The notes beneath the pieces are model-generated. The model made no database searches and was not told the DNA's origin. It was given only the letters and a program-made list of their open reading frames with translations. The position numbers were made by a program, and so were the translations under genes. Positions 9,976-30,111 of a stretch of DNA of 40,207 nt are shown here, piece after piece (position 1 is the stretch's first letter; each line of letters opens with the position of its first letter). The DNA lies in the sequence record SRR22947727_2090. The stretch is one strand, 5' to 3'.

Positions 9976-10032
9976 TAAAGAGCTTTGTAGTTTTTATATT
10001 TTTGTTTAGTATATTATCACTAACAACTACTA

Positions 10033-10040: not shown

Positions 10041-10163
10041 CTGCAAGAATTGAATAGAAGTAGTACTTTATTCATAATTACACACAATTTACACCTAAAA
10101 CATACACTAGGTAATACACAGATCCTTACTGTACAAAAATAAGGACGGAGTTATAGAGATACT

Positions 10164-12068: not shown

Positions 12069-12071
12069 AAA

Positions 12072-14452: not shown

Positions 14453-14804
14453 AAAGGATCCTAAGTACACTGTACTTTGTAGAAGGTTAGCTGGTTATTG
14501 GATTGCTGTTGGTTTGCCAAAAGACTATGACATTGTTCAAGTAATAGGCGGCTCAAGAATTTACAAGATGAATTCAGAGTTCGGTGTAACTACTCCAAGT
14601 GTTTCTAATAAATCTAATTGTTCAGAAAAAAGTCTAGTTGGAGACTTTCTTATAGTACATCCTGATTCATCCCTAACCACATTAAAGAAGAGCCAATATC
14701 TTGCGTACTTCCCCAAACAACCCGTGGTAGAAAAAGAAGGAACCGTAAACAGTAACGTTCTAAAAGATAAAGAATATCTAACTAATCTCAAGAAGAACTC
14801 CTGA
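14418..14804 (+). CDS. Hypothetical protein
   Basis: ORF fills the gap between neighbours; first ATG at 14418. Confidence 0.65.
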   Translation: MEINLKNIKKNKKDPKYTVLCRRLAGYWIAVGLPKDYDIVQVIGGSRIYKMNSEFGVTTPSVSNKSNCSEKSLVGDFLIVHPDSSLTTLKKSQYLAYFPKQPVVEKEGTVNSNVLKDKEYLTNLKKNS

Positions 14805-14822
14805 CTCAGCCTATAATAAGGC

Positions 14823-15257
14823 ATGAACGAGTTAGACAGACTACTAGAGGATTTTGGGTGGGATAGTTATCTTGAGGTCAGCAATGACCTTACTGAGTTT
14901 AACGAAGATACTATCGATGACGATATTATTAAATTCTCTGCCATTTATTCATCATACTACGCTATGATGGTTACGGCTAAGATGATTAATGATGGGGACT
15001 GCACAAACCTTTCTGAGCATATGGCTCAAGTTCGATCTGACTCGAAACAGAACTCAACTAAAAAACTCACTGCGAGGGATTTAGATGACCTTGTTGAAAT
15101 AGACGAGGAAACCAAACGCCTGACATCTGTTTGTCGGGAATCATCCTATAAGTATAACCTACTTAAAGGTCTAATAAAATCTATGGAGGCTAAGAAGGAT
15201 ATGCTCATCCAGTCTTCCAGTAATAGAAGAGCAGAAACTAAACTTTACAGTAACTAA
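14823..15257 (+). CDS. UvsY-like recombination mediator
   Basis: Helical 144-aa protein ending LKGLIKSMEAKKDMLIQSSSNRRAE, directly upstream of the SSB; CTATAATA 5 nt before the ATG. Confidence 0.65.
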   Translation: MNELDRLLEDFGWDSYLEVSNDLTEFNEDTIDDDIIKFSAIYSSYYAMMVTAKMINDGDCTNLSEHMAQVRSDSKQNSTKKLTARDLDDLVEIDEETKRLTSVCRESSYKYNLLKGLIKSMEAKKDMLIQSSSNRRAETKLYSN

Positions 15258-15262
15258 AAAAA

Positions 15263-16084
15263 ATGACTATTGATCTCAAAGCACTACGCGCACAGTACGA
15301 AACCCTTGTCTCCAAAGACGGAGACTCAGACTCTAGTACTACCAAAATCCCTTACATCACACTAAAAGAAGGAAACAACATTGTTCGAATCCTTCCCGGA
15401 AAAGATGATGATGACTTTGTAGCAGAAACTGCTATCCACCGTGTCCCTCAGGATGGTCAGACTTATGACCGTTCTGTTCATTGCCTAAAGACTCACGGAG
15501 AGGATTGTCCTCTTTGTAATCTCTACTACGCTCTTTGGGATGGTGTAAATAATGGCACTACCCAAGACGAAGCTGGAGATAAGAAGCTTGCTAATAAGAT
15601 TCGTGCTCGTAGTCGTTTCTACTTCAACGCTCTTGATCGTGGAGATGAGAACAAGATTAAAGTTTTCTCTGTTGGTGTTAAAATGTACCGTACCATCGTT
15701 GGGTCTATTCTTGACGAAGATTACATCACTGAGGATGACGAAACTCTAATCGATCTAAACAACGGTCACGATTACAAAATCCAGAAAGTAATGGAAGATG
15801 GTTGGCCTAAGTATGAAGGTTCTATGCCTCGTCCTAAGATTACTCCCGCAGCAGAGAGTAAGAAAGAGATTGCAGAAATCATGGATAGTCTCCACGATAT
15901 TCAAGCACTTGTAAAGCATGAAGATTACGCTGAGGTTAAGCTTATGGCTGAATCAATCGCTGTTACTGGACGAGTCGCTGCCATGAGTAAGTCTACGACT
16001 ACGGAAGGTAAGCCTTCTAAAAAAGTTGAGGAAGAGGAAGTTTCTAACGAAGATTACCTAGCTAAGATGAAAGGTAACCAGTAA
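15263..16084 (+). CDS. Single-stranded DNA-binding protein, gp32-like
   Basis: NIVRILPG, zinc ligands H...CLKTHGEDCPLC, GHDYKI, acidic C-terminal tail. Confidence 0.88.
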   Translation: MTIDLKALRAQYETLVSKDGDSDSSTTKIPYITLKEGNNIVRILPGKDDDDFVAETAIHRVPQDGQTYDRSVHCLKTHGEDCPLCNLYYALWDGVNNGTTQDEAGDKKLANKIRARSRFYFNALDRGDENKIKVFSVGVKMYRTIVGSILDEDYITEDDETLIDLNNGHDYKIQKVMEDGWPKYEGSMPRPKITPAAESKKEIAEIMDSLHDIQALVKHEDYAEVKLMAESIAVTGRVAAMSKSTTTEGKPSKKVEEEEVSNEDYLAKMKGNQ

Positions 16085-16339
16085 ATGGGTATTACTACCG
16101 AAACGTTCGGAGAAGATTCTTCTTTTATGAATATCTTAGAAAACCTAGGATGGGATATGACGTTCTTCTTTTATAAGAAAGATCCTTTCGATGTATTTAT
16201 GTCAGAGGGTAAGGCTCTAGTAGGAAAGAGTGAAGAAGGTCTTATGGGGTTGGACTCCAAGTATGGGGCCACTTCAAAAGGGTATACTGTGGCTGTGTAT
16301 GATCGTAAGCAAGACGATTTCTTCTTCAAACCTGCCTAG
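16085..16339 (+). CDS. Hypothetical protein
   Basis: 84-aa ORF abutting the SSB stop. Confidence 0.65.
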   Translation: MGITTETFGEDSSFMNILENLGWDMTFFFYKKDPFDVFMSEGKALVGKSEEGLMGLDSKYGATSKGYTVAVYDRKQDDFFFKPA

Positions 16340-16385
16340 AAATAGAATCTAAAACCGCGCTGCTATCTAAGCGCAAACCCCCCTT

Positions 16386-16428
16386 GAACCCGATACTTTT
16401 TCTCACGAAAGTATCGGGTTCTTTACTT
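16386..16428 (+). terminator. Rho-independent terminator
   Basis: Perfect 14-bp stem GAACCCGATACTTT/AAAGTATCGGGTTC followed by TTTACTT. Confidence 0.8.
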
Positions 16429-16447
16429 CTAGGACCTATAATATTTT

Positions 16448-17692
16448 ATGGAAAACAAAATAAATAAGGAGGATCCCGCCGTAGTGCCTAAAGAGAAATT
16501 AAAAATTCTCGTCAGTGCATCTAATGGCGGGGGATAATTATGCTCATATTACCGACTTTTAATGCCTTTTGAAAAAATAGCACAACTGTACCCTGACGAA
16601 GTAGAAATTAGATTCGATTTGAATCCTCTTGGTTTTGATACTAAGTATGGAGCTATGAGTCCCGGATTAGAAAATGGGGGATGGTTACCTGATTGGGAGT
16701 TTACTGATATGAAATGGGCAGACGTTGTAGTCACAAACAACCTGTCTAACTTTGGTCCTCAGTACAGTGCTAGGATAGTAGGAAAAGCTAAAGAGTTTGG
16801 GAAGTTTGTAATTTATGATACAGATGATTTACTTACAAATCTATACGAAGGTCACAGACTTTACGAAGTATATAAAAATAGGGAACTCGACAAGGTGGCA
16901 GCATTTCTTTATAACCATGCAGACTTGGTTACAGTAACACAAAGAAAGTTTGCTGAAAGAATATCTGAGCACTGCAACAGTACATTAGCTGTAGTAAAAA
17001 ACTCAATCGACTACCAGCTTCCTTGTTGGAATATGCCTAAAGTTACTCCTCACAAAAAGAAGTTGTGTAGGTTTGGTTGGGCTGGAGGAATTCACCACGA
17101 ACAAGACGTAAAGTATTTCTCAGGAGTACCTCATTTAGTAAACCAAAGAGTTGGAAGGGAGAATTGTAGGTGGGACTTTTACGGACACCCACAACCTCAA
17201 CAACAAGACTACGAGTGGCAAGCTGACGTATGGAAGAACTACCAGCGTATCATTATGGCAGGATTCAAAGGAAACAAGAACTTCGGAATCCATTACGCAG
17301 AACATCCTAACATGTATGGAAAGTTCTTCACTAATATGGATGTAGCTCTAGCACCTCTTGAGCCTAATGAGTTCAATGATTCTAAGTCGGAAATTAAGTT
17401 AGCAGAGTGTGGTCGCTATGGAGTACCTCTGGTAGCCTCAAATGTTGGGTGTTACGACGAGTGGATCAAAGACGGTGAAACAGGCTTCTTAATCGACCCT
17501 TCTGAGGGACGTAGTGCGTGGGTGAAGGCTCTTTCGAGGATTGCTAAGGACAAGAGCTTACGCGAGCGTATGGGAGAGAATCTGCGTAAAATCGTCAATG
17601 AGCACTTTGACGCTAACAAAACAGCTAGAGGACGTTTGGACCTCATTAAGGACCAATACAAGCAGTGGAAACTGAACATAACAAAGAGTTAG
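16448..17692 (+). CDS. GT4-like (GT-B) glycosyltransferase interrupted by an in-frame TAA at 16535-16537
   Basis: The ATG at 16448 is in frame with the 16562 ORF: ...KLKILVSASNGGG*LCSYYRLLMPF. Motifs YDTDDLL, FGWAGGIHH, FNDSKSEIKLAE, PLVASNVG. Confidence 0.8.
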
Positions 17693-17693
17693 T

Positions 17694-18488
17694 GTGAAAA
17701 AAGTAAACATCATCAGTGGTTGGTCAAATCCCGGTGGAAGTACTATTCACCATATCAACCTAACGAACATGCTAAATGAAGGGAAGTACGATTGTACTTT
17801 CTATGGTCCCCACGAATGGCACCTCTCTCAGTGTAAATCGGATAATATTAATGAGCTACTAGGACAAGATCCCGCACTTGCAGCAGATGTTACAATCTCA
17901 CACTTCTGCCAGCTTAGGGAGAAGCCTAAAGGTAAACACATTCTCAGTCTTCATGAGACTAACCTATTTCCACTAAAACAATTAGATCTAAGTCAGTGGG
18001 ACCTAGTTCATTATGTTAGTAACAGACAAAGAGCTTGGCATAACGTAAATCATCCTTATGTTGTTATTCCGGGAAGGACTAATAAGTTTAAGTGGGAAGA
18101 TCCTCAGAATAAAGTAGCTGGTGTTGTTGGAAGTATAGACTCCCACAAACAAACCCACATCTCTATTAAACGAGCTTTTGATGCTGGTTATAAAAAAGTA
18201 AAACTATTTGGTGAGATTACTGAGTTGGAGTACTTTAATAGAGAGATTCAAGGTCAACTACACACAGGCAAAGTGGAGGTGATGAATCATGTTGATGATA
18301 GGGAAGTTATGTACGGACAAATAAGCGCAGTGTTTTCTTCTTCTAAGAGAGAGTGTCTACCTACAATCCAAGGAGAGTGCCTGTACGCAGGTATCCCTTT
18401 CTTTGGGTTAGAGAGTAACTTAGCAAAAGAATCAGACTACGAGTTTGATGATAGTGTAATTTTAAAGAAATGGGAAAGTGTTTTATAG
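17694..18488 (+). CDS. GT-B fold glycosyltransferase
   Basis: SNPGGS N-terminal motif, GSIDSHKQTH, SSKRECLPTIQGEC...GIP (E-x7-E-like). Confidence 0.7.
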   Translation: MKKVNIISGWSNPGGSTIHHINLTNMLNEGKYDCTFYGPHEWHLSQCKSDNINELLGQDPALAADVTISHFCQLREKPKGKHILSLHETNLFPLKQLDLSQWDLVHYVSNRQRAWHNVNHPYVVIPGRTNKFKWEDPQNKVAGVVGSIDSHKQTHISIKRAFDAGYKKVKLFGEITELEYFNREIQGQLHTGKVEVMNHVDDREVMYGQISAVFSSSKRECLPTIQGECLYAGIPFFGLESNLAKESDYEFDDSVILKKWESVL

Positions 18489-18490
18489 GT

Positions 18491-19165
18491 ATGATAATAG
18501 GAAATGGTTTAGTAGCAAAAGGATTTAAAAAGTTTAACCATACTAATTATCTAATTCTAGCTTCTGGTGTTTCTGATTCTTTAGAACATAGGTCAGAGGA
18601 GTTTACTAGAGAGGAGACTTTAGTTTTAAACGCTATAAAGGAACACCCTAAGAAAAAAGTAATTTATATTAGTACTATACTTATTGATTTTAGAAATGAT
18701 CCCTATTACCTTCATAAGCGTAAAATAGAGAATATTATAAAAACTAAGGCCAAGAAGTATTTAATTTTTAGAGTACCACAGCTTGTAGGAACAGAAGGGA
18801 ATTCTAATAATATGGTAAACTACTTTAAAGATAAAATAAAAAAAGGCCAAAAACTATTAGTACATGAAGGTGTACTTAGGTCGTTGCTTAGTGTGAAAGA
18901 CTTAGTTAAGATAGTGACACTTCCTTGTATATTAAAAAGAACAGGTACGATGTTTATTTCTGGTGTGGAGTTTGTTGAAGTGTCTACTATATGTAAGTTA
19001 ATAGCTAAAGCCTTGGGGAAACCTTTACATGTAGAGTTTCGGGCAATGTATGAGGACTCAAAGTGGACTACCCTAAATTCCTCTTACATAAAGGAAGCAC
19101 TTTGTACCTTAAAGATAAACTCTGAGGGATACACAAAAAACCTAATCAGTGAGTACATTTACTAA
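18491..19165 (+). CDS. Short NAD-dependent epimerase/dehydratase-like SDR
   Basis: MIIGNGLVAK, ASGVSDS, YISTI, YYLHKRKIE (YxxxK); likely ATG at 18491. Confidence 0.75.
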   Translation: MIIGNGLVAKGFKKFNHTNYLILASGVSDSLEHRSEEFTREETLVLNAIKEHPKKKVIYISTILIDFRNDPYYLHKRKIENIIKTKAKKYLIFRVPQLVGTEGNSNNMVNYFKDKIKKGQKLLVHEGVLRSLLSVKDLVKIVTLPCILKRTGTMFISGVEFVEVSTICKLIAKALGKPLHVEFRAMYEDSKWTTLNSSYIKEALCTLKINSEGYTKNLISEYIY

Positions 19166-19899
19166 TGGAACTAAAAATACTAGTAGGATTTTACAACGCA
19201 CAAGACTATATTGCTCGATGTTTACAATCTATTAAGAGCCAAGAGTACACAAATTTTACTTGTTATATTACTCATGATTTATCTACGGATAACTCTAAAG
19301 CTATTGTTGAAGATTTCATAAAAGATGACTGTAGGTTCTTACTTTCTAAGGATTACCATAAAAAATTGTACCAAACAGGTAACTTTGATAGGACTATTAG
19401 ATACAATAATAATATACAAGATAATGATGTTCTTATAGAAGTGGATGGGGACGATTACCTCCCAGATACTAAAGTATTTTCACGTATAGCTAAGACTTAT
19501 GAGGATCCTAATATTTGGATTGCAAATGGAAGCTTTATGTACTCCAATGGTGCCAAAGGGTTCTCCAAGAGACAAGAAGGTTTTGAATGTTTGAGGTCTT
19601 CTAGGTTTACAGCTACACACATTAGAACGTGGCGAGCTTTTTTATGGAGAGGAATCAAAGAAGAAGACTTAAAAACCCCAGAGGGGGAGTACTGGCAGTG
19701 GAGTGGGGATTTATGCTTTATGTACCCAATGCTTGAGATGGCAGGTGAGGAGCATTACTTCTATATGGAGGAAATTAACTATATCTATAACGGTGATAAT
19801 CCTATAAATGAGCATAAACTGGATATGTTTATGGTAACTTCAGATGCACAAAGTATTAGATCTAAACAACCTTACAAACCCCTCACTAGGCTATCATGA
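19165..19899 (+). CDS. GT2 family glycosyltransferase
   Basis: FYNAQDYIARCLQSI, DLSTDNS, VDGDDYL (DxD). Confidence 0.88.
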   Translation: MELKILVGFYNAQDYIARCLQSIKSQEYTNFTCYITHDLSTDNSKAIVEDFIKDDCRFLLSKDYHKKLYQTGNFDRTIRYNNNIQDNDVLIEVDGDDYLPDTKVFSRIAKTYEDPNIWIANGSFMYSNGAKGFSKRQEGFECLRSSRFTATHIRTWRAFLWRGIKEEDLKTPEGEYWQWSGDLCFMYPMLEMAGEEHYFYMEEINYIYNGDNPINEHKLDMFMVTSDAQSIRSKQPYKPLTRLS

Positions 19900-20654
19900 T
19901 TACTTGTAACCTAGTTGGACCGGGACAAGCTAACTGTGGATTAGGGAATCAGTTATTTCAAGTTGCTTCTATCCTAAGTTATGCTAAAGACAACGACCTC
20001 CTTTACAGCTTCCCATGTTTAACAGATTCTAAGTACGGTAGTTATAAAAATAACATATTTAGAAATATAAATACTAACCACTCAGGAGAATCTGACTATT
20101 ATTATAAAGAACCAACTTTTGAATATTCTGAAATACCTATAAAGGAGTCTATACATGTCCATTCAAGTTATCTCCAAAGTTTCAAGTATTTTCAAAGCAA
20201 TAGGGACTACATTATAAAAATGCTTGAAATGTCCTCTGTAGATAGAAAATATTTGATAGATAAGTACAACCCAAAAGAGTATGTGTCTCTCCATATTAGA
20301 AGAGGTGACTACTTAAATTATGAAGTCTTCCACACAAACCTAAGTAAGACTTCTTACTACTCAGAAGCAATACTAAAGTTTCCTACTGAAGAATTTCTTA
20401 TTTTTAGTGACGATCCATCGTGGGCAAAAGAACAATACCCTAATTGTAGGGTTGTTGAGGAGGAAGACTATTTGGAAATGTATTTAATGTCCCTTTGTAA
20501 GTCTAACATTATAGCAAACTCTACATTCTCTTGGTGGGGAGCATGGTTAAATAAAAATATAAACAAGAAGGTAATTGCCCCTATTAAATGGTTCGGACCT
20601 TCTTATAACTACTCAACAAAGGACTTACTACCTCCAACATGGAGTATTTTATAA
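19896..20654 (+). CDS. GT11 alpha-1,2-fucosyltransferase-like enzyme
   Basis: GLGNQLFQ, LHIRRGDY, IFSDD, IIANSTFSWWGAWL. Confidence 0.92.
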   Translation: MITCNLVGPGQANCGLGNQLFQVASILSYAKDNDLLYSFPCLTDSKYGSYKNNIFRNINTNHSGESDYYYKEPTFEYSEIPIKESIHVHSSYLQSFKYFQSNRDYIIKMLEMSSVDRKYLIDKYNPKEYVSLHIRRGDYLNYEVFHTNLSKTSYYSEAILKFPTEEFLIFSDDPSWAKEQYPNCRVVEEEDYLEMYLMSLCKSNIIANSTFSWWGAWLNKNINKKVIAPIKWFGPSYNYSTKDLLPPTWSIL

Positions 20655-21380
20655 ATGAAAAGACTAGAAACACACAACGAGAGTTATAAAAACTTTCTAA
20701 AAGATAAAAGAGTTGCAATAGTAGGACCTTCTGAATCCGCATTTTTTAATGAAAATGGTGAGTACATAGACAGTTTTGATGTAGTTGTTAGGGTTAATAA
20801 GGGGATAGAGTTAGTACAAGGTAAAGAATCTTTTATAGGAAGTAGAACAGAGATACTTTATAATTCCTTAGACTTTAGTGTTATAAGTGGAGGTACTTTG
20901 GATAGGGTGGACGATCAGGTTAAATTTATCTGTTGTCCTTATTCCTTAGAAGAACACACCTATAATGATAATTTTATTGCGTCTGTATTTGATAAATTCA
21001 ATATTAGATTTATAGATACGGAGATATACAATAAAGTAAAATCAGATACTCAAAGCAGGATTAATTCAGGCTTTGGAGCAATAGTAGATTTATTACAACA
21101 TGATATAAAACAATTGTTTATTACTGGAATTGATTTTTACAGGAGTTTTTATCACAAAAGTTATTGCAAGGAAAGGAATAGATCCGCAACAGTTAAAGCT
21201 CTTGAAGAAGAACTGGAATTTAAGAAACACAACGACTCAAATCATCACAACCCAGACAGGCAGTATGCTTATTTTAAAGAAGTTATTAGTAATGATACAC
21301 GGGTAATAATGGATCCATTTTTAACTCGAATAATTCAAGATAGTAACTATGATAATTGGGACACAATACCAAGGGGCTAA
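20655..21380 (+). CDS. GT29 sialyltransferase-like glycosyltransferase
   Basis: L-motif-like RVAIVGPS...GEYIDSFDVVVRVN...GSRT; S-motif-like NSGFGAI...LFITGIDFY; VS-like HNPDRQ. Confidence 0.72.
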   Translation: MKRLETHNESYKNFLKDKRVAIVGPSESAFFNENGEYIDSFDVVVRVNKGIELVQGKESFIGSRTEILYNSLDFSVISGGTLDRVDDQVKFICCPYSLEEHTYNDNFIASVFDKFNIRFIDTEIYNKVKSDTQSRINSGFGAIVDLLQHDIKQLFITGIDFYRSFYHKSYCKERNRSATVKALEEELEFKKHNDSNHHNPDRQYAYFKEVISNDTRVIMDPFLTRIIQDSNYDNWDTIPRG

Positions 21381-21391
21381 GAATCTACATT

Positions 21392-22180
21392 ATGAAACAC
21401 ATAGATAATATGGTAAAGTACAATGGTCTGACAGGGCTAAAAACCTCATTAGAGGACGAAGGAGCGTCACATAGAGATATGAACGATATCCTAAGTATTT
21501 GTAATAAAAAAGAACTGTACTGTACAGTAAAGATAGGAGGGTGCGAGGCTAAAACAAATATTCTAACCTGTAGGGATTTTGATGTTAACGCTATTGTGGC
21601 TCCTATGGTGGAGACTCCTTACGCATTTAAAAAATTTAAAATGATGTGTAAAGAGGTATTCCAGAATGAATTATATTTATACGACTTCTATGTAAATATA
21701 GAAACTGAAACAGCCATCAAAAATTTAGATAAAATTCTGAAGTTAAATGAGGGATTCTTAAAAGGAGTAGTTTTTGGAAGATCTGATATTGTAGGAAGTC
21801 TTAACCTTCCTAAAGATTCGGTAGAGGATGATGAAATATTTAATCTTATACAACCTGCATTAAAGATGGCGAAAGAAAATAATTTAACTACAGCTTTAGG
21901 AGGAAATCTAACATCCAAAAGTGAATCTTTTATAATGAAATTGTTTAATGGTGGTTTGTTGGATAAGGTAGAAACTCGTTTAGCGATTTGTACACTAAAT
22001 GATTTGAAGGGTGATTATACCTCATTTGTAGACAATGCGATAGAGCTAGAAAAACTAGTATTACAAAAAAGAATAGACAGGCTAGAACGAGAAGTATCTC
22101 CTTGGAAAGACAGATACAAAGGCATCGGCTCTAGAGCCTCTATCATGAAAGAAGATTTAAAAGACTTGGAGTTATTGTAA
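21392..22180 (+). CDS. HpcH/HpaI aldolase / citrate lyase-beta family protein
   Basis: VKIGGCEA, IVAPMVETPYA, NIETETA, VFGRSDIVGS; first ATG at 21392. Confidence 0.8.
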   Translation: MKHIDNMVKYNGLTGLKTSLEDEGASHRDMNDILSICNKKELYCTVKIGGCEAKTNILTCRDFDVNAIVAPMVETPYAFKKFKMMCKEVFQNELYLYDFYVNIETETAIKNLDKILKLNEGFLKGVVFGRSDIVGSLNLPKDSVEDDEIFNLIQPALKMAKENNLTTALGGNLTSKSESFIMKLFNGGLLDKVETRLAICTLNDLKGDYTSFVDNAIELEKLVLQKRIDRLEREVSPWKDRYKGIGSRASIMKEDLKDLELL

Positions 22181-23076
22181 TGAAGATATTAATTACGGGA
22201 GGTACTGGTTTTATAGGAAAAAAATTAGCTAACTTACTAAAAGAGAAGCATGAAGTACATATTCTTGATAAAAATCCAGACCATGAAGTGACTCGAAAAT
22301 TTAAGGCATTCTATTTTGATATGTCAGAAAAACATTTCTTCGATGGTTTAGATGAAGACTACGATCTAGTATTTCATTTAGCAGCACAGTCCGGAGGTTA
22401 TTACTCTCTAATACACCCTCAGGATGATTGCGACTGGAACTGCAAAGCAACAGTTAACTTAGTTGAATTTTGTTTAAGGATTAAACCCAGAAAAGTAGTA
22501 TTTACCTCATCAATGGCTGTATACGGGAACGCTAGTAATGTAACAGAACATGCTCTTACGAACCCAATAAGTTTTTATGGAGTAAGCAAGTTAGCCTCAG
22601 AAAATTATATAAAACTTTTAAAAGAGCATTCAGATATTACCTATAGTATCTATAGATTATTTGCAACATACGGGTCAGACCAAGATCTGAATAATTTACA
22701 TCAAGGGATTGTAAGCATTTACCTAAGTTACGCTATAAAGAATAAAGAAATACCTATTACTGGGAAGAAGGATAGAGTAAGATGTTTAGTGCATGTAGAT
22801 GATGTTTGCTCCGCTTTGGAGCAATCTATAACTAACCCTAAAACAGATAATAATACTTATAACGTGTTAAATGAAGAGGTTTGTACTCCAAAAAGTATTT
22901 CTGATACTATTTCAAAATCTATGGGAGAAAAGATTAAGATTGTAGAAAACGAAGGATATTCTGGGGACCAAACATTCATTACAGGGGACAACACAAAATT
23001 AAAAAGTACCGGATGGTCCCCTACACTAAACCTAGCCCAAGGTATATCAGAATTTTACAGTAAGGTAAGGGGGTAA
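22180..23076 (+). CDS. NAD-dependent sugar-nucleotide epimerase/dehydratase
   Basis: ITGGTGFIG, FHLAAQS, SSMAVYG, YGVSK. Confidence 0.92.
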   Translation: MKILITGGTGFIGKKLANLLKEKHEVHILDKNPDHEVTRKFKAFYFDMSEKHFFDGLDEDYDLVFHLAAQSGGYYSLIHPQDDCDWNCKATVNLVEFCLRIKPRKVVFTSSMAVYGNASNVTEHALTNPISFYGVSKLASENYIKLLKEHSDITYSIYRLFATYGSDQDLNNLHQGIVSIYLSYAIKNKEIPITGKKDRVRCLVHVDDVCSALEQSITNPKTDNNTYNVLNEEVCTPKSISDTISKSMGEKIKIVENEGYSGDQTFITGDNTKLKSTGWSPTLNLAQGISEFYSKVRG

Positions 23077-23078
23077 CA

Positions 23079-23750
23079 ATGACTAAGTTGACTGTAGTTA
23101 TACCTGTAAGATCTGGATCTCAAAGAGTAATAGACAAAAACTTTAAACCTTTTGCAAACTCTAGTCTTTTAGAGATAAAAATTAATCAAGTTAAACAATT
23201 ACCTGTAGATAAGATTGTAATAAATACGAATAGTCATGAGGCAATAAGAATTGCTAAAAAACATAACGTAGAATTTTTTGAAAGAGATCCGTACTACGCA
23301 AGCTCTGAGTGTAGTAACAGTGAGTATCATGAGTATCTTGCAAAAGTCACAGATGCAGAAAATTTATTAATAGCACAGGTAACATCACCACTAATCAAGA
23401 CTGAAAGTTATTTAGACGCAATACAAAAGTTTTTTAAATCCGGTTGTGACTCAATAATGTCTGTTCAGAAATGTCAAAACTTCTTACTTAAAAATGGTAT
23501 TCCCGTAAATTATACTTTAGATAACATGCCTAATTCGCAGGATCTGGAGCCTTATCAAGTCCCTACCTTTGGAATCGTAATATGTAAAAGAGAGAAGATG
23601 TTAGAACAAAAAAATTATATTTGTGGTAATTGTAGCTTTTTAGAGTTGGATGAAATTGAATCTATAGACATTGATACTCCTTTAGATTTTAAGTTAGCTG
23701 AATTTATATATAAAACAAAGATTCTAAACTTTGACGGAGGGAAAAAATGA
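23079..23750 (+). CDS. CMP-ulosonic acid synthetase (NeuA/KdsB-family cytidylyltransferase)
   Basis: IPVRSGSQRVIDKN, QVTSPL, PNSQDL, IDIDTPLDF. Confidence 0.88.
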   Translation: MTKLTVVIPVRSGSQRVIDKNFKPFANSSLLEIKINQVKQLPVDKIVINTNSHEAIRIAKKHNVEFFERDPYYASSECSNSEYHEYLAKVTDAENLLIAQVTSPLIKTESYLDAIQKFFKSGCDSIMSVQKCQNFLLKNGIPVNYTLDNMPNSQDLEPYQVPTFGIVICKREKMLEQKNYICGNCSFLELDEIESIDIDTPLDFKLAEFIYKTKILNFDGGKK

Positions 23751-24163
23751 TTCAAATTAGATCGAAACTATCAGGCGAAGTCATCCATATGGTTTATACC
23801 GAAGATGACTTCACATCGCAACGAACAGAACTAGTACATCCTACTAACTTCATTCAGTGCTCTTATCTAAAGTTTAATGAGGGTTTCACTTTTAGACCAC
23901 ATAAGCATATCTGGAAGGAGCCTACTTTTAACAAAATGATTGCCCAAGAGAGTTGGGTAGTTATCCGAGGATCTGTAGAGGTATCCTTCTTTGATTTGGA
24001 TGGTTCAGACTTAGCTAAAGTAGTACTAAAAGAGGGAGACTCATCCTTCACTTTAGAGGGTGGGCATAACTACCTAATTCTAGAAGATGATACCGTGGTA
24101 TACGAGTATAAAACAGGTCCTTACACAGGACAAGAGAACGACAAAGAGTTTTTAGACCAATGA
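23747..24163 (+). CDS. Cupin-fold protein (WbuC-like)
   Basis: RPHKH, QESWVVIRGS, GGHNY, EYKTGPY. Confidence 0.75.
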   Translation: MIQIRSKLSGEVIHMVYTEDDFTSQRTELVHPTNFIQCSYLKFNEGFTFRPHKHIWKEPTFNKMIAQESWVVIRGSVEVSFFDLDGSDLAKVVLKEGDSSFTLEGGHNYLILEDDTVVYEYKTGPYTGQENDKEFLDQ

Positions 24164-24687
24164 AATTACACTTAGGTTGCGGAAAGAGAGATTTTGGTGA
24201 GGGTTGGCACAGTATTGACTGCGAGCCATTCCCTCATGTGGAGAGTTACAGCATAACACATTTACCCTTTGAGGATAACTCTTGTGATTTGCTATACGCC
24301 TCCCACGTTATTAATTACTTTGACAGAAATGAGGTTATACTACTACTTCAAGAGTGGAGGAGAGTTCTAAAACCTAATGGGATTCTTAGGTTAGCTGTTC
24401 CTAACTTTGATGCTATGGTAAATTTATATATGGAAGGGCACGACTTACAGAAGTTCTTAGGTCCTTTGTACGGAAGAATGAACGATGATTTAATTTACCA
24501 CAAAACAGCGTATAACTATACTCACTTAGCTGAGTTATTACTAACTTGTGGTTTTAGCTCTGTTTCTAGATATGACTGGAGAACTACTTGTCATGCAGAG
24601 TTTGATGACCACTCTCAAGCGTATATTCCTCATATGGATAAGGACAGAGGTACACTAATTAGCTTAAATTTAGAGGCAAGAAAATGA
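24160..24687 (+). CDS. Class I SAM-dependent methyltransferase-like protein
   Basis: LHLGCG, LPFEDNSCD, ASHVINY, RRVLKPNGILRLAVPN. Confidence 0.85.
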   Translation: MKLHLGCGKRDFGEGWHSIDCEPFPHVESYSITHLPFEDNSCDLLYASHVINYFDRNEVILLLQEWRRVLKPNGILRLAVPNFDAMVNLYMEGHDLQKFLGPLYGRMNDDLIYHKTAYNYTHLAELLLTCGFSSVSRYDWRTTCHAEFDDHSQAYIPHMDKDRGTLISLNLEARK

Positions 24688-25283
24688 GTTTTAAAGTAGT
24701 AGAGGAGTTTGAGAACAAAATAGCAGAGTTTTACGGAGCTAAGTACGCAGTAGCAACAGATAGTTGTACTCATGCTATTGAGTTATGTTTACGTGCTGAG
24801 AAAGACCCTCCGAGGCTCATGTTTCTTCCAGCACGTACTTATATCTCAATACCCTTCACGTTAATGAAGCTAAAACAAGAGTTTGTTTTTGATGATTATG
24901 GCTGGGAGGATTATTACTGGATAGGCAACACTAATATTATAGATGCTGCTGTCCTATGGAAAAGAAACTCTTACAAGAATGGGACTCTAATGTGTTTAAG
25001 TTTCCAGTTCCAAAAACACCTAAGCTTAGGTAGAGGAGGAATGATTCTAACTAATAATAAGAAAGTTGCTGAGAAGCTTAAAAGAATGTCCTATGATGGG
25101 AGAGAGCCAAACACACCTTGGAGAGATCAGGATATTTATGAGGTAGGGTATCACTATTACATGACTCCTGAAATAGCTCAGTTAGGTTTAGAAAAGCTCC
25201 CTGAGGCTATCGAAAGAACTCCAAGACAGTGGGTAGTTACGGATTGGCCGAAACTAACAGACATGACAGTATTTAAAAAATGA
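24684..25283 (+). CDS. Compact DegT/DnrJ/EryC1/StrS PLP-dependent aminotransferase-like protein
   Basis: EFENKIAEFYG, AVATDSCTHAI, IIDAA, SFQFQKHL..GRGGMIL, GYHYYM; only 199 aa. Confidence 0.82.
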   Translation: MSFKVVEEFENKIAEFYGAKYAVATDSCTHAIELCLRAEKDPPRLMFLPARTYISIPFTLMKLKQEFVFDDYGWEDYYWIGNTNIIDAAVLWKRNSYKNGTLMCLSFQFQKHLSLGRGGMILTNNKKVAEKLKRMSYDGREPNTPWRDQDIYEVGYHYYMTPEIAQLGLEKLPEAIERTPRQWVVTDWPKLTDMTVFKK

Positions 25284-26239
25284 AAAAAGCACTAATCACA
25301 GGAATCGCAGGACAGGACGGAAGCTACTTATCTGAGTACCTTCTATCTTTAGGGTATGAAGTTCATGGAGTTATTAGAAGAAACTCTCTACCTGAAAATC
25401 AAGATAGCAGACTAAAAGGGTTAAACATTATTACCCATTACGGAGATCTTCTAGACCCCCTATCTCTTAATAGAATTGTGTCTGAAGTAATGCCTGACGA
25501 AGTTTATAACCTAGGCGCACAAAGCCACGTTAGAATTAGTTTTGATGTTCCTGCATTTACTATCCAAACTAACGCATTAGGAGTACTAAACTTATTAGAA
25601 GCTTGTCGAACGTTTGTTCCTAACGTTAAGTTCTACCAAGCTAGTTCTTCTGAGATGTTTGGAAACACAGTTGATTCTGATGGATATCAAAGGAAAACTA
25701 CTCCTATGAATCCTACATCCCCTTATGGTTGTGCTAAAGTAATGGGTTATAACTTAGTCCGTCACTACCGAGCAGCTTATGGTATGCACACTTGTAATGG
25801 AATCTTATTCAACCACGAATCTCCTAGACGAGGATCTAACTTCGTTACCAACAAGATCGTTAAGACTGCGGTAGAGATTAAGAAGGGGTTACAGACTGAG
25901 TTATCTCTTGGAAACTTGGATGCTTCCCGAGATTGGGGCCACTCTAAGGATTATGTAAGAGCTATGCATAAAATCATTAACCATGATGTTGCGAGTGATT
26001 TCGTAGTAGCTACAGGAGAAAGTCGTACCATACGAGATATGTGTAAGATTACTTTTGAAAAGCTAGGACTTAATTATGAGGACTACGTAACTGTAGACCC
26101 TAAGTACTTCCGTCCTCAAGAGCTAGACTTTCTTCGGGGTGACTCTAGTGAGATTCGAGAAGTCTTAGGTTGGAAACCTACTTACACTTTTGATGAGATG
26201 GTTGGTGAGATGGTAGACCACTGGATGGAGGTAGTATAA
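25280..26239 (+). CDS. gmd: GDP-mannose 4,6-dehydratase
   Basis: ALITGIAGQDGSYL, NLGAQSHVRISF, YQASSSEMFG, GILFNHESPRRG, RDWGH. Confidence 0.95.
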   Translation: MKKALITGIAGQDGSYLSEYLLSLGYEVHGVIRRNSLPENQDSRLKGLNIITHYGDLLDPLSLNRIVSEVMPDEVYNLGAQSHVRISFDVPAFTIQTNALGVLNLLEACRTFVPNVKFYQASSSEMFGNTVDSDGYQRKTTPMNPTSPYGCAKVMGYNLVRHYRAAYGMHTCNGILFNHESPRRGSNFVTNKIVKTAVEIKKGLQTELSLGNLDASRDWGHSKDYVRAMHKIINHDVASDFVVATGESRTIRDMCKITFEKLGLNYEDYVTVDPKYFRPQELDFLRGDSSEIREVLGWKPTYTFDEMVGEMVDHWMEVV

Positions 26240-26899: not shown

Positions 26900-27898
26900 A
26901 TGAACCCCGAAGCATTAAAACAACTCAAGAACGTAAATATTCTCTCTAAGGAGTCCCAAACCTCAGATTACATTTCAGTAGGATCTTACGCTCTCAATCA
27001 CGATATTACTGGCGATTTCAATAAAGGAATTCCAGTCGGAAAAATTTCTGAATACTACGGAAATGCTTCCACCGCAAAAACAGTTTTTCTCACGCACATT
27101 TTAAAAGATGCACAGAAAAAAGGTTTTTACACAATGTTAGTTGATTCTGAAAATGCATACTCGGCTGATTTTGCATCCACACTAGGATTAAATCCTGACA
27201 AACTTATTTACTGTGCGCCAGAAACTCTTGAGGATTGTTTTGAAACCATAGAAGAAACTATTTTAGAAATCAGAAAGGTTGACAAAAAAACTCCTATCGT
27301 AGTCGGATATGATTCTTTAGCAGTAAGTCCATCTAGATCTGAATATGAAGCTGCACCCGATAAAACTAGCCCGATTGATGGTGCGAAAAGAGCATTAGCA
27401 ATCGGACAACTTCTTCGTAAGATCAACCCAAAAATTAAAAAGTACAATGTATCTCTAGTGATTATTAATCAGCTTAGAGAGAAGGTTGGGGTAATGTTCG
27501 GGTCAAACGAAACGAAGGCTAGTGGAGGAAGGTCATTAGAGTTCTACCTAGGCGTAAGCTCCAAAACTCTTTCCAATAAAACTTCTGATTTAATCAGAGA
27601 TGAACACAAGCAGGTAATTGGCATTAAAGGAACTGTACGTAATACCAAGAACAAAGAAGGTCTTCCTTTTAGAGAGTCCCCTTTTAAGTTAATGTTTGAT
27701 AAAGGTCTAGATCCTTGGGTAGGGGTTGTAGAAATCTTAGAGTATAAAGGTCTGGTTGCTAAAGATGGTGGTTGGTATGTAATTAAGGAGAATAACGTTA
27801 AGTTCCGTAAGAAGCAGTTCCCCGAACTTATTGTTGACCTAGAAAATAAGGATTTTGCTGGTCTAAGAAAGCTGTTTGACCTTAAGCTTCTTAAGTAG
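26900..27898 (+). CDS. RecA/UvsX-like recombinase
   Basis: GIPVGKISEYYGNASTAKT, VDSENA, YDSLAV, IINQLREKVGVMFG, SGGRSLEFY, KNK. Confidence 0.92.
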   Translation: MNPEALKQLKNVNILSKESQTSDYISVGSYALNHDITGDFNKGIPVGKISEYYGNASTAKTVFLTHILKDAQKKGFYTMLVDSENAYSADFASTLGLNPDKLIYCAPETLEDCFETIEETILEIRKVDKKTPIVVGYDSLAVSPSRSEYEAAPDKTSPIDGAKRALAIGQLLRKINPKIKKYNVSLVIINQLREKVGVMFGSNETKASGGRSLEFYLGVSSKTLSNKTSDLIRDEHKQVIGIKGTVRNTKNKEGLPFRESPFKLMFDKGLDPWVGVVEILEYKGLVAKDGGWYVIKENNVKFRKKQFPELIVDLENKDFAGLRKLFDLKLLK

Positions 27899-27959
27899 TA
27901 AGAAAAGTTTCTTAGAGTTTGTTGAAGACTTTGCTGGGTGTACAAGGTATAATAAGGCT

Positions 27960-28253
27960 ATGAATCAAGAAAAATTTCTAAAAGCTCTCACTAAAAGACT
28001 CAACGACCACTTCGAAGTAATCGGAACTGAGACAGGGACTACTCGCCCAATACACACTCGGAAAAAAGATTCGAAGAAAGTATTGACCAAGGCACCTAAG
28101 TCTGATATAATAGAGCCATCGAAGAGCACGAAGCTCTACGAGTCCATCGAGGACTACACTAAGAAGACTGGTAAGAGATTTCGTATGACTAAGGAAGACT
28201 CTGCCCTTAACCTAACCCGTGAACAAGCGTTCGAAAAACGATTCAACAACTAA
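27960..28253 (+). CDS. Hypothetical basic protein
   Basis: The ATG at 27960 lies 6 nt after TATAAT, so it is a more likely start than 27876. Confidence 0.6.
   Translation: MNQEKFLKALTKRLNDHFEVIGTETGTTRPIHTRKKDSKKVLTKAPKSDIIEPSKSTKLYESIEDYTKKTGKRFRMTKEDSALNLTREQAFEKRFNN
28083..28111 (+). promoter_or_regulatory. Sigma70-type promoter inside an ORF, upstream of the DUF932 gene
   Basis: TTGACC-17 nt-TATAAT. Confidence 0.65.
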
Positions 28254-28255
28254 TT

Positions 28256-29044
28256 ATGCTTACTATCAAAAACGAAGAACTCATCCGTACCTTTGCTCCC
28301 GCTGCTTTTGCAACTACCCCTGACCCTGTTCAGGTTTCTAGTCGTTATAAGTTCCTTCCTACTACCGATATTATGGAAGTACTCCAAGAGGAGGGTTGGG
28401 TAGCTCACGAAGCTCAACAGGTTAAGTCCCGTAAGTGGAGTGCAGAACACGCCAAGCACCTTATTCGTTTCCGTCACGAATCTCTCTCAATGAATGAGTT
28501 TGGTGTTGGAGACTCTTTTCCTGAGATGCTTCTTATCAACTGCCACAATGGTCTAGGAAGCTACCAACTTCGTGCAGGACTCTTTCGTATGGTTTGTTCT
28601 AACGGTATGATTGTTTCTGACGCTGAGTATGGAAACGTAAGTCAGCGTCACATTGGTTTCAGTGCAGAGGATGTTATTAAGTCCTCTCGTAAAGTTATCG
28701 AGGATGCTTCCACCTTGTCTAACGTAGTAACTGCTTGGGAGTCTATCGTTCTCAACAAAGAACAATCGAAGGAGTATATTTCTAGGGCGGCTGAGATTCG
28801 TTTTGGTGACAGTGTAGATCGTAATATCCTAACTAACCTTAACCGTGCTCGTCGTTCTGAGGATGTTGGGGATACTTTGTGGCGTAGCCATAACCGTGTC
28901 CAAGAAAGTCTTATGCGTGGAGGATTTGTTAACGGTACTACCAACCGTCGAGCACGGGAGATTACTAACATCAACACTAATCTCCAGATCAACACGGATC
29001 TCTGGGCTCTTTCTACTGAGTTTGCACAAGCAGTCCAAAACTAA
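28256..29044 (+). CDS. DUF932 family protein
   Basis: SSRYKFLPT, KHLIRFR, LINCHNG, AGLFRMVCSNGMI, RRSED, LWRSHNRVQE. Confidence 0.88.
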   Translation: MLTIKNEELIRTFAPAAFATTPDPVQVSSRYKFLPTTDIMEVLQEEGWVAHEAQQVKSRKWSAEHAKHLIRFRHESLSMNEFGVGDSFPEMLLINCHNGLGSYQLRAGLFRMVCSNGMIVSDAEYGNVSQRHIGFSAEDVIKSSRKVIEDASTLSNVVTAWESIVLNKEQSKEYISRAAEIRFGDSVDRNILTNLNRARRSEDVGDTLWRSHNRVQESLMRGGFVNGTTNRRAREITNINTNLQINTDLWALSTEFAQAVQN

Positions 29045-29071
29045 ATAACCAAAAATAAACTTTATTACAAC

Positions 29072-29108
29072 AAGGTCCTACTTTACTAGATAAAGTAGGA
29101 CCTTATTT
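29072..29108 (+). terminator. Rho-independent terminator
   Basis: 13-bp stem AAGGTCCTACTTT/AAAGTAGGACCTT followed by ATTT. Confidence 0.7.
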
Positions 29109-29115
29109 AATACCT

Positions 29116-29454
29116 ATGGAAGAAGATAAAGAATTATTTCGAGTTCCCTTTAAACTTAGGAAAGATGGAACTTATATTACAACAACACAGTTAAAAATGT
29201 ACTTAAGTACTAAAGAAGGAAAAGAGGCTTTTATGGAAGCGTCTGACGATTTTTTTGAGTACCTAGATAGGTGCCGAATTTATAATTTGGTATACGACGA
29301 GAACGAAAAAGATGCTAAATCAGCACGTTTATTTTGGGATCACAAGAACGAGTGTGTTGCTGTTCAGTGGCCTAAAGGAGGCAAGGTATCTGAGATGGTT
29401 AAGAGTTTAGTTGCATCAGAAGATGATGAAGATGAGGATTTTTTCTTTTACTAA
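29116..29454 (+). CDS. Hypothetical protein
   Basis: 112-aa ORF, TAATG-coupled to the next gene. Confidence 0.7.
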   Translation: MEEDKELFRVPFKLRKDGTYITTTQLKMYLSTKEGKEAFMEASDDFFEYLDRCRIYNLVYDENEKDAKSARLFWDHKNECVAVQWPKGGKVSEMVKSLVASEDDEDEDFFFY

Positions 29455-29648
29455 TGAGTAAGTCTAATAAAAATGATTCTTCTCCTAGGGAACGATTTAA
29501 AAAGTCTAAAAGTAAGAAGTTGGATAAAGGTTGCCGAGAAATAGGCCAGAAACGCTATAATAAGAGGACAACATCGTCCAATGACGATGAGTATGCGTAT
29601 CTTGATGACGAAGATACGTTTGAAAAGTTTTCTAAAAAACGCAAATGA
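29454..29648 (+). CDS. Small charged hypothetical protein
   Basis: 64-aa ORF with TAATG overlap. Confidence 0.6.
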   Translation: MSKSNKNDSSPRERFKKSKSKKLDKGCREIGQKRYNKRTTSSNDDEYAYLDDEDTFEKFSKKRK

Positions 29649-29788
29649 ACATTTATCTAGACTTAATGGTGGAAACGCCTTTCTTTCCGAATCCTATCTC
29701 TTTGTACCAATACGAAGAACTTTTGAAAAATTACCTAGTGTTTCCCCTATCTACTTTAGAGGATAACAACTATGGTAGCAGAATATAA
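29645..29788 (+). CDS. Possible 47-aa protein (not in ORF track)
   Basis: ATGA overlap with the previous stop; MNIYLDLMVETPFFPNP...; fills the gap. Confidence 0.35.
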   Translation: MNIYLDLMVETPFFPNPISLYQYEELLKNYLVFPLSTLEDNNYGSRI

Positions 29789-30110
29789 ACCAAAAGGTAA
29801 CGCATACTTTAACGAAGTTAGAGTTCAGAAGCAGATCAAGAGTATTCTTGAAGAGAACAAGCAAGACAGACTAAAAGCTTTAGAGGCTTACGAGTACTTT
29901 AAAGATCGTTTAGAGACTGACGAGGGAGATCCAAACCCTGAGAACCAACGAGCGATGTTGGACAGTCTTAAGATTGCTCAGACTGCTAGAAATAACTCGG
30001 TAAAGCTTATTACTATACTTAACAAAAACTTTGAAGGTGAGAAGTCGCCTTCTAACAAAACTAAAACAAAAGACAAGGGTTCCGTTAACCCACTTTTTAC
30101 AAAGACCTAA
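29772..30110 (+). CDS. Hypothetical helical protein
   Basis: 112-aa ORF ending just before the ATG of the next gene. Confidence 0.7.
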   Translation: MVAEYKPKGNAYFNEVRVQKQIKSILEENKQDRLKALEAYEYFKDRLETDEGDPNPENQRAMLDSLKIAQTARNNSVKLITILNKNFEGEKSPSNKTKTKDKGSVNPLFTKT

Positions 30111-30111
30111 T

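Follow-up and report, generated by a model that had tools for sequence, protein, structure and literature searches.

To our knowledge, all known routes to sialic-acid-like sugars and to 3-deoxy-D-manno-octulosonic acid (Kdo) begin with a phosphoenolpyruvate (PEP)-dependent synthase of the NeuB or KdsA type, and genome surveys use genes of these two types as markers. We analyzed a 40,207-nucleotide stretch of DNA from sequence record SRR22947727_2090 (the window; positions refer to it unless a related locus is named), which belongs to an uncultured marine phage. Four adjacent genes at 20655-23750 encode a sialyltransferase-like glycosyltransferase, an aldolase-like protein with the HpcH/HpaI fold, a short-chain dehydrogenase/reductase (SDR), and a NeuA-like cytidylyltransferase. 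These genes probably make, activate, and attach a sialic-acid-like sugar through a series of predicted catalytic steps. The first enzyme is not homologous to NeuB or KdsA, which makes this a probable new route to an ulosonic acid activated with cytidine monophosphate (CMP). On balance, we favor the reading that the four genes are the phage version of a widespread module that makes a CMP-ulosonic acid without a synthase of the NeuB or KdsA family.

The proposed route follows the same logic as the known pathways for nonulosonic acids, both those in which NeuB, PseI, or LegI is followed by NeuA, PseF, or LegF and a transferase, and the animal pathway of NANS, NANP, and CMAS. A three-carbon unit is condensed with an aldose, the product is optionally dephosphorylated, an enzyme of the CTP_transf_3 family activates it, and a transferase of the GT29, GT42, or Maf type attaches it. 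The differences are that an HpcH-fold enzyme would replace the NeuB-family synthase, with no NeuB in the window or in 145 of 158 related loci; that the cytidylyltransferase is far below the cut-off for PseF (61.6 bits versus 205.7), the sole nonulosonic-acid-type equivalog among its NCBIfam matches; and that the window has no hydrolyzing 2-epimerase (NeuC) for UDP- or GDP-HexNAc. The Kdo pathway (KdsA, KdsC, and KdsB) is similar in that it combines a synthase, a small cap-less phosphatase of the HAD family, and a CMP-synthetase, and in relatives of our locus the aldolase and a HAD-like domain are fused or adjacent. However, the window encodes no protein of the DAHP_synth_1 family, the cytidylyltransferase scores lower against the KdsB models (16-26 bits versus cut-offs of 155-281) than against PseF, and the HAD-like domain of the relatives looks closer to HAD domains of the polynucleotide-kinase type.

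The nearest described enzymes for the first step are the class II aldolases of the HpcH/HpaI family (HpaI, HpcH, YfaU/RhmA, and GarL) together with SbnG, which have in common with the window protein the fold, the Pfam family, and two acidic metal ligands. Class II pyruvate aldolases combine pyruvate and an aldehyde to give a 4-hydroxy-2-oxo acid, and this chemistry would yield exactly a 2-keto-3-deoxy acid. The known members, however, are catabolic or make siderophore precursors and have about 15% identity to the window aldolase, and we know of no member that feeds a nucleotide-sugar pathway.

The closest phage-borne system is that of the prophage proteins EpaA and EpaB of Acinetobacter baumannii, which convert the pseudaminic acid (Pse) of the host to 8-epi-Pse (PMC12053666). 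As described in the accessible part of that paper, they resemble the genes studied here in being phage-borne, in altering a nonulosonic acid of the host surface, and in combining a CTP_transf_3 domain with oxidoreductases, but they act on existing Pse from the host genes psaA-F, and no aldolase, phosphatase, or transferase is part of the system described there. The accessible part of a preprint on SugarBase (10.64898/2026.04.20.719630) reports new CMP-linked higher-carbon ulosonic acids and mentions no aldolase. Our literature search, which covered papers available without a subscription, turned up neither this module nor any report that places an HpcH-type enzyme in a CMP-sugar pathway.

The four genes and their predicted products

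The four genes are intact open reading frames (ORFs) on the + strand, arranged head to tail with overlaps of 1-4 nt or gaps of 2-12 nt. Their order (GT29-like gene, aldolase, SDR, cytidylyltransferase) is conserved in six related loci as judged from ORF calls (L001-L003 and L083-L085), and at the DNA level in L082, where the caller missed an ORF. Nucleotide identity to the window is 64-85% in the six closest loci (L001-L003 and L082-L084), and an aldolase of the same length (262 amino acids, aa) with 98% identity is also present in ENA (P0001). The original prediction had described four consecutive genes of four families, and all of these assignments hold, by Pfam and, for the transferase, by a family profile and by fold. 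It had also stated that the window lacks NeuB, NeuC, and KdsA genes, and we found none: among 54 ORFs scanned against profiles (16 plus 38), there was no match to the NeuB, DAHP_synth_1/KdsA, or Epimerase_2/NeuC families, nor to HAD families.

The aldolase-like protein (21392..22180, + strand) is most safely read as a divergent member of the HpcH/HpaI family that would bind a 2-oxo acid through a divalent metal. Its ORF is open from a TTG at 21356 (274 aa), and the homologues start at the ATG at 21392 (262 aa). The protein matched Pfam PF03328 (HpcH_HpaI) at 30.0 bits, above the cut-off of 25 (32.6 for L001 and 25.1 for the relative P0007), and 90-92% of the members of its nearest Atlas clusters carry PF03328. 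The AlphaFold2 (AF2) model (pLDDT 92.8) is a TIM-barrel of the phosphoenolpyruvate/pyruvate-domain type, and Foldseek ranks 1-34 were HpaI, HpcH, YfaU, GarL, SwHKA, and SbnG (E 3e-8 to 4e-6, TMq 0.56-0.61); pyruvate kinase and PEP-binding barrels ranked lower. E104 and D132, which are invariant in 21 sequences, pair with E153 and D179 of YfaU, residues that we take to be the ligands of the divalent metal. The family also has invariant motifs of its own (SxEDEG, KIGGCEA, and GRSD). We considered a PEP mutase instead and judged it unlikely; there was no Pfam PEP_mutase match, and the EDEG motif, as placed by eye, follows strand 1, at another position than the EDK motif that PEP mutases presumably carry. 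Together, these features make the protein a predicted synthase of a 2-keto-3-deoxy (ulosonic) acid.

The product of the first gene (20655..21380, + strand, 241 aa) is sialyltransferase-like and appears to fall between families GT29 and GT42, with a variant of the GT-A fold. The original prediction had labeled it GT29; the likeness to sialyltransferases stood, and the label itself was too precise, since the protein is below the Pfam cut-off and has its longer match to the GT42 enzyme Cst-II. Against PF00777 (Glyco_transf_29), the window protein scored 22.9 bits (E 6e-5), just under the cut-off of 23; L001 was also below (17.6 bits), and the distant L006 passed with 63.4 bits. We found 51 homologues within the reach of a word-based search, and the distant ones carry PF00777. 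When a profile of 21 members was compared to all PDB sequences, 16 of the 17 matches at E≤10 were sialyltransferases that use CMP-sialic acid. The GT29 enzymes among them (ST3Gal-I, ST6Gal-I, ST6GalNAc-II, and ST8Sia-III) matched through motif L, with profile positions 17-69 aligning with residues 97-147 of ST3Gal-I (E 1e-9), and their alignments ended after motif L or near position 122. Cst-II aligned over a longer stretch, residues 2-191 with profile positions 18-203 (E 3e-8), and the sole invariant histidine of the family, H198, pairs with Cst-II H188, presumably the catalytic base, and not with a residue of any GT29 enzyme.

Structure comparison gave a similar picture. The AF2 model of the transferase (pLDDT 89.7) had Cst-II, ST3Gal-I, ST6GalNAc2, and ST8SiaIII as its top Foldseek matches (TM about 0.4-0.56), and Cst-II took ranks 1, 2, and 4. 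The likeness to both families thus consists of the fold, a motif L-like VGxxxS...G..ID..D.V.R.N, a motif S-like SG...ITG.DFY (in full, SGxGAI...ITGIDFY), and the histidine aligned with Cst-II H188. The TM scores to either family, however, reach only 0.4-0.56, and in contrast to GT29 enzymes the window protein is short (241 aa) and soluble-looking, without the stem, membrane anchor, or disulfide cysteines of that family. We therefore do not file it as a member of GT29, and consider it the predicted transferase for the CMP-activated acid sugar.

The fourth gene (23079..23750, + strand, 223 aa) encodes a cytidylyltransferase of the NeuA/PseF type. It scored 54.1 bits against Pfam CTP_transf_3 (cut-off 22.6), and all five of its PDB matches at E≤0.01 were CMP-Neu5Ac synthetases. 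In alignments with PpNeuA and mouse CMAS, the PxRxGS..KN loop, QxTSP, and the C-terminal DIDxxxD motif are preserved; we take the loop to be the CTP-binding one and assume the roles of the other two from the known enzymes as well. Seven related cytidylyltransferases were equally below the equivalog cut-offs, and the eighth protein tested (from L116) was a true KdsB. The enzyme is therefore best described as of the sialate-activating kind, apparently not an orthologue of any named enzyme, and as a predicted CMP-ulosonate synthetase.

The third gene (22180..23076, + strand, 298 aa) encodes an extended SDR of the GalE/nucleotide-sugar epimerase type. It matched Pfam Epimerase at 132.8 bits over residues 3-229 and GDP_Man_Dehyd at 124.7 bits; its best NCBIfam scores (GalE, 107 bits; LegB, 84 bits) were both far below the cut-offs, and its top PDB matches were 4-epimerases of UDP-glucose and UDP-GlcNAc (E 3e-25 to 1e-20). 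The SDR may modify the CMP-sugar or prepare the aldose.

The four predicted activities can be ordered into a pathway. The aldolase would condense a three-carbon 2-oxo acid, most likely pyruvate, with PEP or oxaloacetate as alternatives, with an aldose or aldose phosphate to give a 2-keto-3-deoxy acid. With a phosphorylated acceptor, a HAD-like phosphatase would then free the acid; the phosphatase domain is deleted in the window phage, and therefore the pathway there would depend on an enzyme of the host or on an aldose without a phosphate. The cytidylyltransferase would convert the acid to a CMP-sugar, which the SDR could epimerize, oxidize, or reduce, probably at the nucleotide level. Finally, the GT29/GT42-like transferase would add the sugar to a glycan built by the adjoining GT4, GT2, and GT11 enzymes. 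We infer these steps, and with them the donor and the acceptor, from the enzyme families; a sugar of C7 to C9 would be compatible with them, and the target may be the host envelope or the virion.

Gene linkage of the aldolase family

The aldolase family is not rare. It comprised 1538 proteins at E≤0.001 among 2108 word-sharing candidates, and in a 1.84-billion library there were 1282, 930, and 509 representatives at E≤0.001, 1e-10, and 1e-30, respectively. Alignment-based scans kept 135 of 160 matched IMG/VR (viral) stretches and at least 559 of at least 596 matched JGI metagenome stretches. The relatives came from these scans; a scan with the single protein found none in viral contigs and only L001 in genomes. 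Among 401 sampled Bacteroidota genomes, eight contained the aldolase, one of them being the bin that holds L001, and NCBI names the relative P0024 as from a Candidatus Pelagibacter bacterium.

A cytidylyltransferase was frequently located near the aldolase. We fetched 161 loci (80 viral, 80 metagenomic, and L001), of which 158 had a called aldolase. We assigned domains with hidden Markov models (HMMs) because single-linkage clustering had joined the aldolase and a dehydroquinate synthase (DHQS)-like enzyme through fusion proteins. A NeuA-like cytidylyltransferase was within six genes of the aldolase in 75 of the 158 loci and within two genes in 49, and related SDRs were within six genes in 63. 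The original prediction had called for a survey of co-occurrence in phages and bacteria, and the link between aldolase and cytidylyltransferase does recur, in numerous phages and bacteria of marine origin, all of them uncultured. It appears to be specific to the aldolase, because in the same loci a cytidylyltransferase was within two genes of the aldolase in 31% of cases, compared to 5% (5/98) for GDP-mannose 4,6-dehydratase (GMD) and 13% for DegT; the value for a thiamine diphosphate (TPP) enzyme was 0%. In a tree of the aldolases, the association was found for 69 of 136 distinct sequences, in several clades.

Predicted transferases for CMP-activated sugars were almost always found together with the cytidylyltransferase. 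A sialyltransferase-like gene (GT29-like or MptE/Maf-like) was within six genes of the aldolase in 32 loci, and a cytidylyltransferase accompanied it in 30 of them; the exceptions were L082, in which an ORF was missed and the gene is kept at the DNA level, and L111, in which the contig ends. After merging aldolases with at least 70% identity into 58 clusters, all 13 clusters with a sialyltransferase-like gene had a cytidylyltransferase. Several gene orders recurred on unrelated contigs: GT29-aldolase-FeS-125aa-cytidylyltransferase, Maf-aldolase-cytidylyltransferase-HAD, and aldolase-HAD-cytidylyltransferase-SDR-Maf. The synthesis, activation, and transfer that the original prediction had read into the four genes is thus supported by linkage of the aldolase to cytidylyltransferases, sialyltransferase-like genes, and HAD genes across unrelated loci, with the catalysis itself staying at the level of prediction.

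A second set of loci lacks the cytidylyltransferase. In 64 of the 158 loci, a TPP enzyme resembling acetolactate synthase was within six genes of the aldolase, and no locus contained both this enzyme and a cytidylyltransferase. Of the 58 clusters, 34 had a cytidylyltransferase, 22 had a TPP enzyme, and 55 had either; the one cluster with both had them in different member loci. A DHQS-like gene was present in 39 loci, including five aldolase-DHQS fusions (580-608 aa), and HAD and DHQS-like genes never shared a locus (0/158); within the TPP-route clade of the aldolase tree, loci carried one of the two. TPP enzymes and NeuA-type synthetases both act on alpha-keto acids. DHQ synthases and HAD enzymes both deal with a phosphate ester: the substrate of the former is a 3-deoxy-ulosonate 7-phosphate, from which the phosphate is expelled, and the latter would remove it by hydrolysis. 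Taken with this enzymology, the mutual exclusion of HAD and DHQS suggests that the product of the aldolase is a phosphorylated 2-keto-3-deoxy acid. The simplest reading of the linkage and the enzymology is that the aldolase makes an often phosphorylated 2-keto-3-deoxy acid that is then either CMP-activated and transferred or sent to the TPP/DHQS route.

The TPP-type module typically consists of the TPP enzyme, a FabG-like reductase, the DHQ-synthase-like enzyme, the aldolase, and usually a GalE-like SDR (L041:9974-14903, L175:6157-11488, L176:5426-10501, L179:41-6995, and about 34 more loci). It occurs on viral contigs and on Bacteroidota chromosomes, and its product may be a carbocyclic or chain-shortened sugar.

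We noted additional genes in the neighborhood of the aldolase. In 43-50 loci (for example, L008:10710-12253, L012:10720-12187, and L134:7603-9110), some of the CMP type and some of the TPP type, the aldolase is always followed directly by two proteins that are absent from the window: a 4Fe-4S protein of about 365-390 aa whose C-terminal domain is LdpA-like, and a family-less protein of 117-133 aa. In L106, an aldolase-HAD pair is flanked by a GT29-like protein of 523 aa (5774-7345) and a cytidylyltransferase of 516 aa (8473-10023), each about twice the usual length, which suggests extra fused domains. In L006 (9194-9895) and in L104, the aldolase is separated from a strongly matching GT29-like gene (63 bits) by a gene of the Sulfotransfer_2 family, and the glycan of this lineage may be sulfated.

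Loss of the HAD-like domain and alternative explanations

The aldolase gene of the window has lost a C-terminal HAD-like domain. In L001-L003 and L082-L085, the aldolase is a fusion of 377-389 aa. DNA alignment with L001 and L002 places an in-frame deletion junction at 22125..22154 (+ strand), with 345 nt (115 codons) lost; by blastn, L002 4890-7094 corresponds to 19937-22141 and L002 7452-9019 to 22154-23719. The deletion spares the last seven or eight codons of the aldolase and the overlapping start codon of the SDR. A 311-nt contig of run X1 spans 21898-22208 without a gap, although this run may be the source sample itself. The original prediction had called the module self-contained, and this part gained no support, as the window aldolase lacks the phosphatase domain still present in all six closest relatives. 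The pathway in the window may therefore be incomplete, altered, or weaker than that of the relatives.

The lost domain resembles a small HAD phosphatase. In 11 sequences, D21-F-D23-G-V, K102, and D110-D111 are invariant, a pattern of DxDx(T/V), lysine, and terminal DD. All Pfam matches were sub-threshold: HAD_SAK_2 in 6 of 11 sequences (best E 0.017), Hydrolase_6 in 3, and NT5C in 2; the best PDB match was 1xpj (E 0.022). The names of its Atlas neighbors are polynucleotide kinase or capsular biosynthesis protein; just 13-27% of the members of two lower-ranked neighbor clusters carried Hydrolase_3/HAD_PNKP. Of the 21 loci that have the domain, 7 encode it as a fusion with the aldolase and 14 as a separate protein, and in 19 it is within two genes of the aldolase. 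There was no HAD gene within six genes in 54 of the 75 loci with a linked cytidylyltransferase, which indicates that the phosphatase may be dispensable or supplied elsewhere.

Several findings weigh against a CMP-ulosonate module of this kind. The aldolase has TM scores of about 0.6 and identity of about 15% to characterized HpcH enzymes, hhalign to a canonical HpcH neighbor gave 10.9% probability over residues 57-162 only, and we know of no enzyme activity for any member of the family. R70 of HpaI, presumably the catalytic arginine that polarizes the pyruvate carbonyl, has no assignable counterpart, the invariant K47 and R130 being candidates by position only, and neither the invariant cysteine of KIGGCEA nor the EDEG motif has an assigned role. 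The score of the cytidylyltransferase falls far short of each equivalog cut-off in NCBIfam, which leaves room for a substrate that is not an ulosonate, and the transferase misses the Pfam cut-off for GT29. A HAD-like gene is present in only 21 of the 158 loci, was assigned from motifs and sub-threshold matches, and has been lost from the window itself. The loci are not independent samples; a simple script called their ORFs, and they also served to build the HMMs. Finally, NeuB is encoded elsewhere in four of five Bacteroidota genomes with the aldolase, limiting "NeuB-independent" to the level of the locus. In these five genomes, the module is of the TPP/DHQS type and not of the CMP type: of five fetched loci, three had the aldolase in a TPP-FabG-DHQS module, and in a fourth only part of such a module was seen, with no aldolase, DHQS, or FabG gene called.

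The NeuB findings bear on the alternative that survives best, although we consider it unlikely: that the donor is supplied by a NeuB or KdsA of the host or of other phage genes, and that the part played by the aldolase and the SDR is limited to remodeling or recycling of a nonulosonic acid or Kdo. Remodeling could consist of sialate-lyase-like cleaving and re-forming of the acid, or of epimerization of pseudaminic acid as by EpaA/EpaB. The latter is a precedent, in that phage-borne CTP_transf_3 and reductase proteins turn host Pse into 8-epi-Pse according to the accessible part of PMC12053666. The loss of the phosphatase domain and the presence of NeuB in those Bacteroidota genomes and in 13 of the 158 loci are consistent with an external donor, and the sequence read here is the 40-kb window, with the phage genome beyond it out of view. 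However, NeuB was never within two genes of the aldolase, and 63 of the 75 loci with aldolase and cytidylyltransferase have no NeuB in up to 20 kb. L103 has a minimal aldolase-HAD-cytidylyltransferase triplet with no other sugar genes nearby. L013 and L089 have more than one cytidylyltransferase, one adjoining the aldolase and additional copies elsewhere in the locus beside NeuB genes. Fusion to a phosphatase or a DHQS-like enzyme also suits synthesis from a phosphorylated precursor better than it suits remodeling. A search for NeuB and KdsA in the records behind L001, L002, and G001, the nearest record to the window, found them only on other contigs of the bacterial bin of L001, a result that neither supports nor refutes a phage neuB.

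A somewhat less likely alternative is that the HpcH-fold protein is not an ulosonate synthase. It might attach a three-carbon branch to a nucleotide-linked keto sugar; it might be a decarboxylase of 2-oxo acids, a lyase, or a PEP-utilizing enzyme; or it might supply the cytidylyltransferase with a phosphonate-type compound, or an acid that is not a sugar, to be activated. The great divergence of the family from assayed aldolases, motifs (EDEG and GGCEA) that are unlike HpaI, and the presence of pyruvate kinase and PEP-binding domains among the fold matches would all be compatible with other chemistry. So would the 64 loci in which the aldolase is paired with the TPP enzyme, the FabG-like reductase, and the DHQS-like enzyme and not with a cytidylyltransferase, a gene outline that we take to resemble routes to branched sugars or phosphonates, and the fact that a GalE-like SDR adjoins the aldolase in both module types. 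Yet the top 30 or so fold matches are class II aldolases of pyruvate or hydroxypyruvate and SbnG, both metal ligands are conserved, and a PEP mutase is disfavored by the lack of a Pfam PEP_mutase match and the different placement, by eye, of EDEG and EDK. The cytidylyltransferase, moreover, matches only CMP-sialate synthetases among solved structures, and the transferases in these loci are all of kinds that use CMP-sialate.

Decay of the module, with the four genes as remnants of a pathway broken in this phage by the loss of the phosphatase domain, is improbable: the 115-codon deletion is indeed specific to the window lineage, the six closest relatives keeping the fusion, but its reading frame is exactly maintained, with the end of the aldolase and the start of the overlapping SDR gene preserved, and none of the four ORFs is interrupted. 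In addition, of the 75 loci with a linked cytidylyltransferase, 54 do without a HAD gene within six genes, and one other relative lacks the domain (P0003, 253 aa, 76% identity).

Returning to the favored reading, a phage version of a widespread module for CMP-ulosonic acid, we tentatively extend it to the family as a whole, a broader proposal that we hold with less than even confidence. The aldolases might constitute a third, convergent family of ulosonic acid synthases, built on the fold of the class II pyruvate aldolases and not on that of NeuB or KdsA/DAHPS. Their product would lead to a new CMP-activated acid sugar, possibly a heptulosonic or another non-aminated ulosonic acid, that marine phages and bacteria such as SAR11 relatives would display by means of GT29/GT42- or Maf-like transferases. 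In other lineages, the same aldolase product would be diverted, in a mutually exclusive manner, to the TPP/DHQS-like route and perhaps to a carbocyclic or chain-shortened sugar.

The glycan island and its phage

The four genes are genes 6 to 9 of a sugar-gene island of 13 co-oriented, tightly packed genes (9.7 kb, 16562-26239) that lies between a gp32-like gene and MazG. Upstream on the + strand, and in the same order in L001-L003 (16562..20654), are genes for a GT4 enzyme (16562-17692), a 264-aa protein with no assigned function (17694-18488), a short SDR-like protein of 231 aa (18470-19165), a GT2 enzyme (19165-19899), and a GT11 fucosyltransferase-like protein (19896-20654), with the assigned families from Pfam. 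Downstream, also on the + strand, are a WbuC-family cupin (23747-24163; NCBIfam, 46.7 bits versus a cut-off of 42), a methyltransferase (24160-24687; Pfam), a short DegT-like protein of 199 aa (24684-25283; Pfam), and a GDP-mannose 4,6-dehydratase-like protein (25280-26239; NCBIfam gmd, 388 bits versus 415). The downstream genes (23747..26239) probably make a separate 6-deoxyhexose. The DegT/LegC-like protein is of half length, its Pfam match being limited to profile positions of about 163-237 of 360. It is found in 13 loci with a median of 200 aa (for example, L001:9581-10183), and because the same length recurs it is not a simple pseudogene.

The window is a replication and nucleotide-metabolism region, as determined from profile scans of its ORFs, and contigs of four sequencing runs confirm the presence of the window sequence. 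It encodes a split family-A DNA polymerase, ThyX, an SbcCD-like pair, ribonucleotide reductase, a DnaB-like helicase, a gp32-like single-stranded DNA-binding protein, a RecA-like recombinase, MazG, a ClpX-like ATPase, two deaminases, and Cpn10. The polymerase is divided into a part with the exonuclease and a uracil-DNA glycosylase-like domain (3604-4620) and a part with the polymerase domain (5100-6260), and an ORF of 158 aa without a family lies between them. The two deaminase genes are of the dCMP/cytidine deaminase family (33941-34375 and 37495-37836) and share the replication region with ThyX and MazG.

There was no usable cultured relative of this phage, as blastn with 20655-23750 and 26900-31455 and tblastn with the window aldolase gave no match among the cultured phages of INPHARED, and the RecA-like protein has less than 35% identity to every phage in that collection. 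The nearest record, the viral contig G001, is 95-97% identical over 1-17683 and stops at the first gene of the island. This break is the pattern expected if the island is hypervariable among co-occurring strains, breaking assemblies. L001 was binned with an Altibacter metagenome-assembled genome, which is at best a weak hint as to the host.

If an aldolase-fold enzyme does the job of NeuB or KdsA, then surveys based on these markers miss a whole class of acidic surface sugars. The aldolase family is located in the hypervariable glycan islands on which recognition between phage and host depends in abundant marine microbes. A phage that brings all of these genes could decorate the surface of its host, or its own particle, with an uncommon acidic sugar. 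A further use of the enzymes would be the chemo-enzymatic synthesis of CMP-ulosonates from cheap pyruvate.

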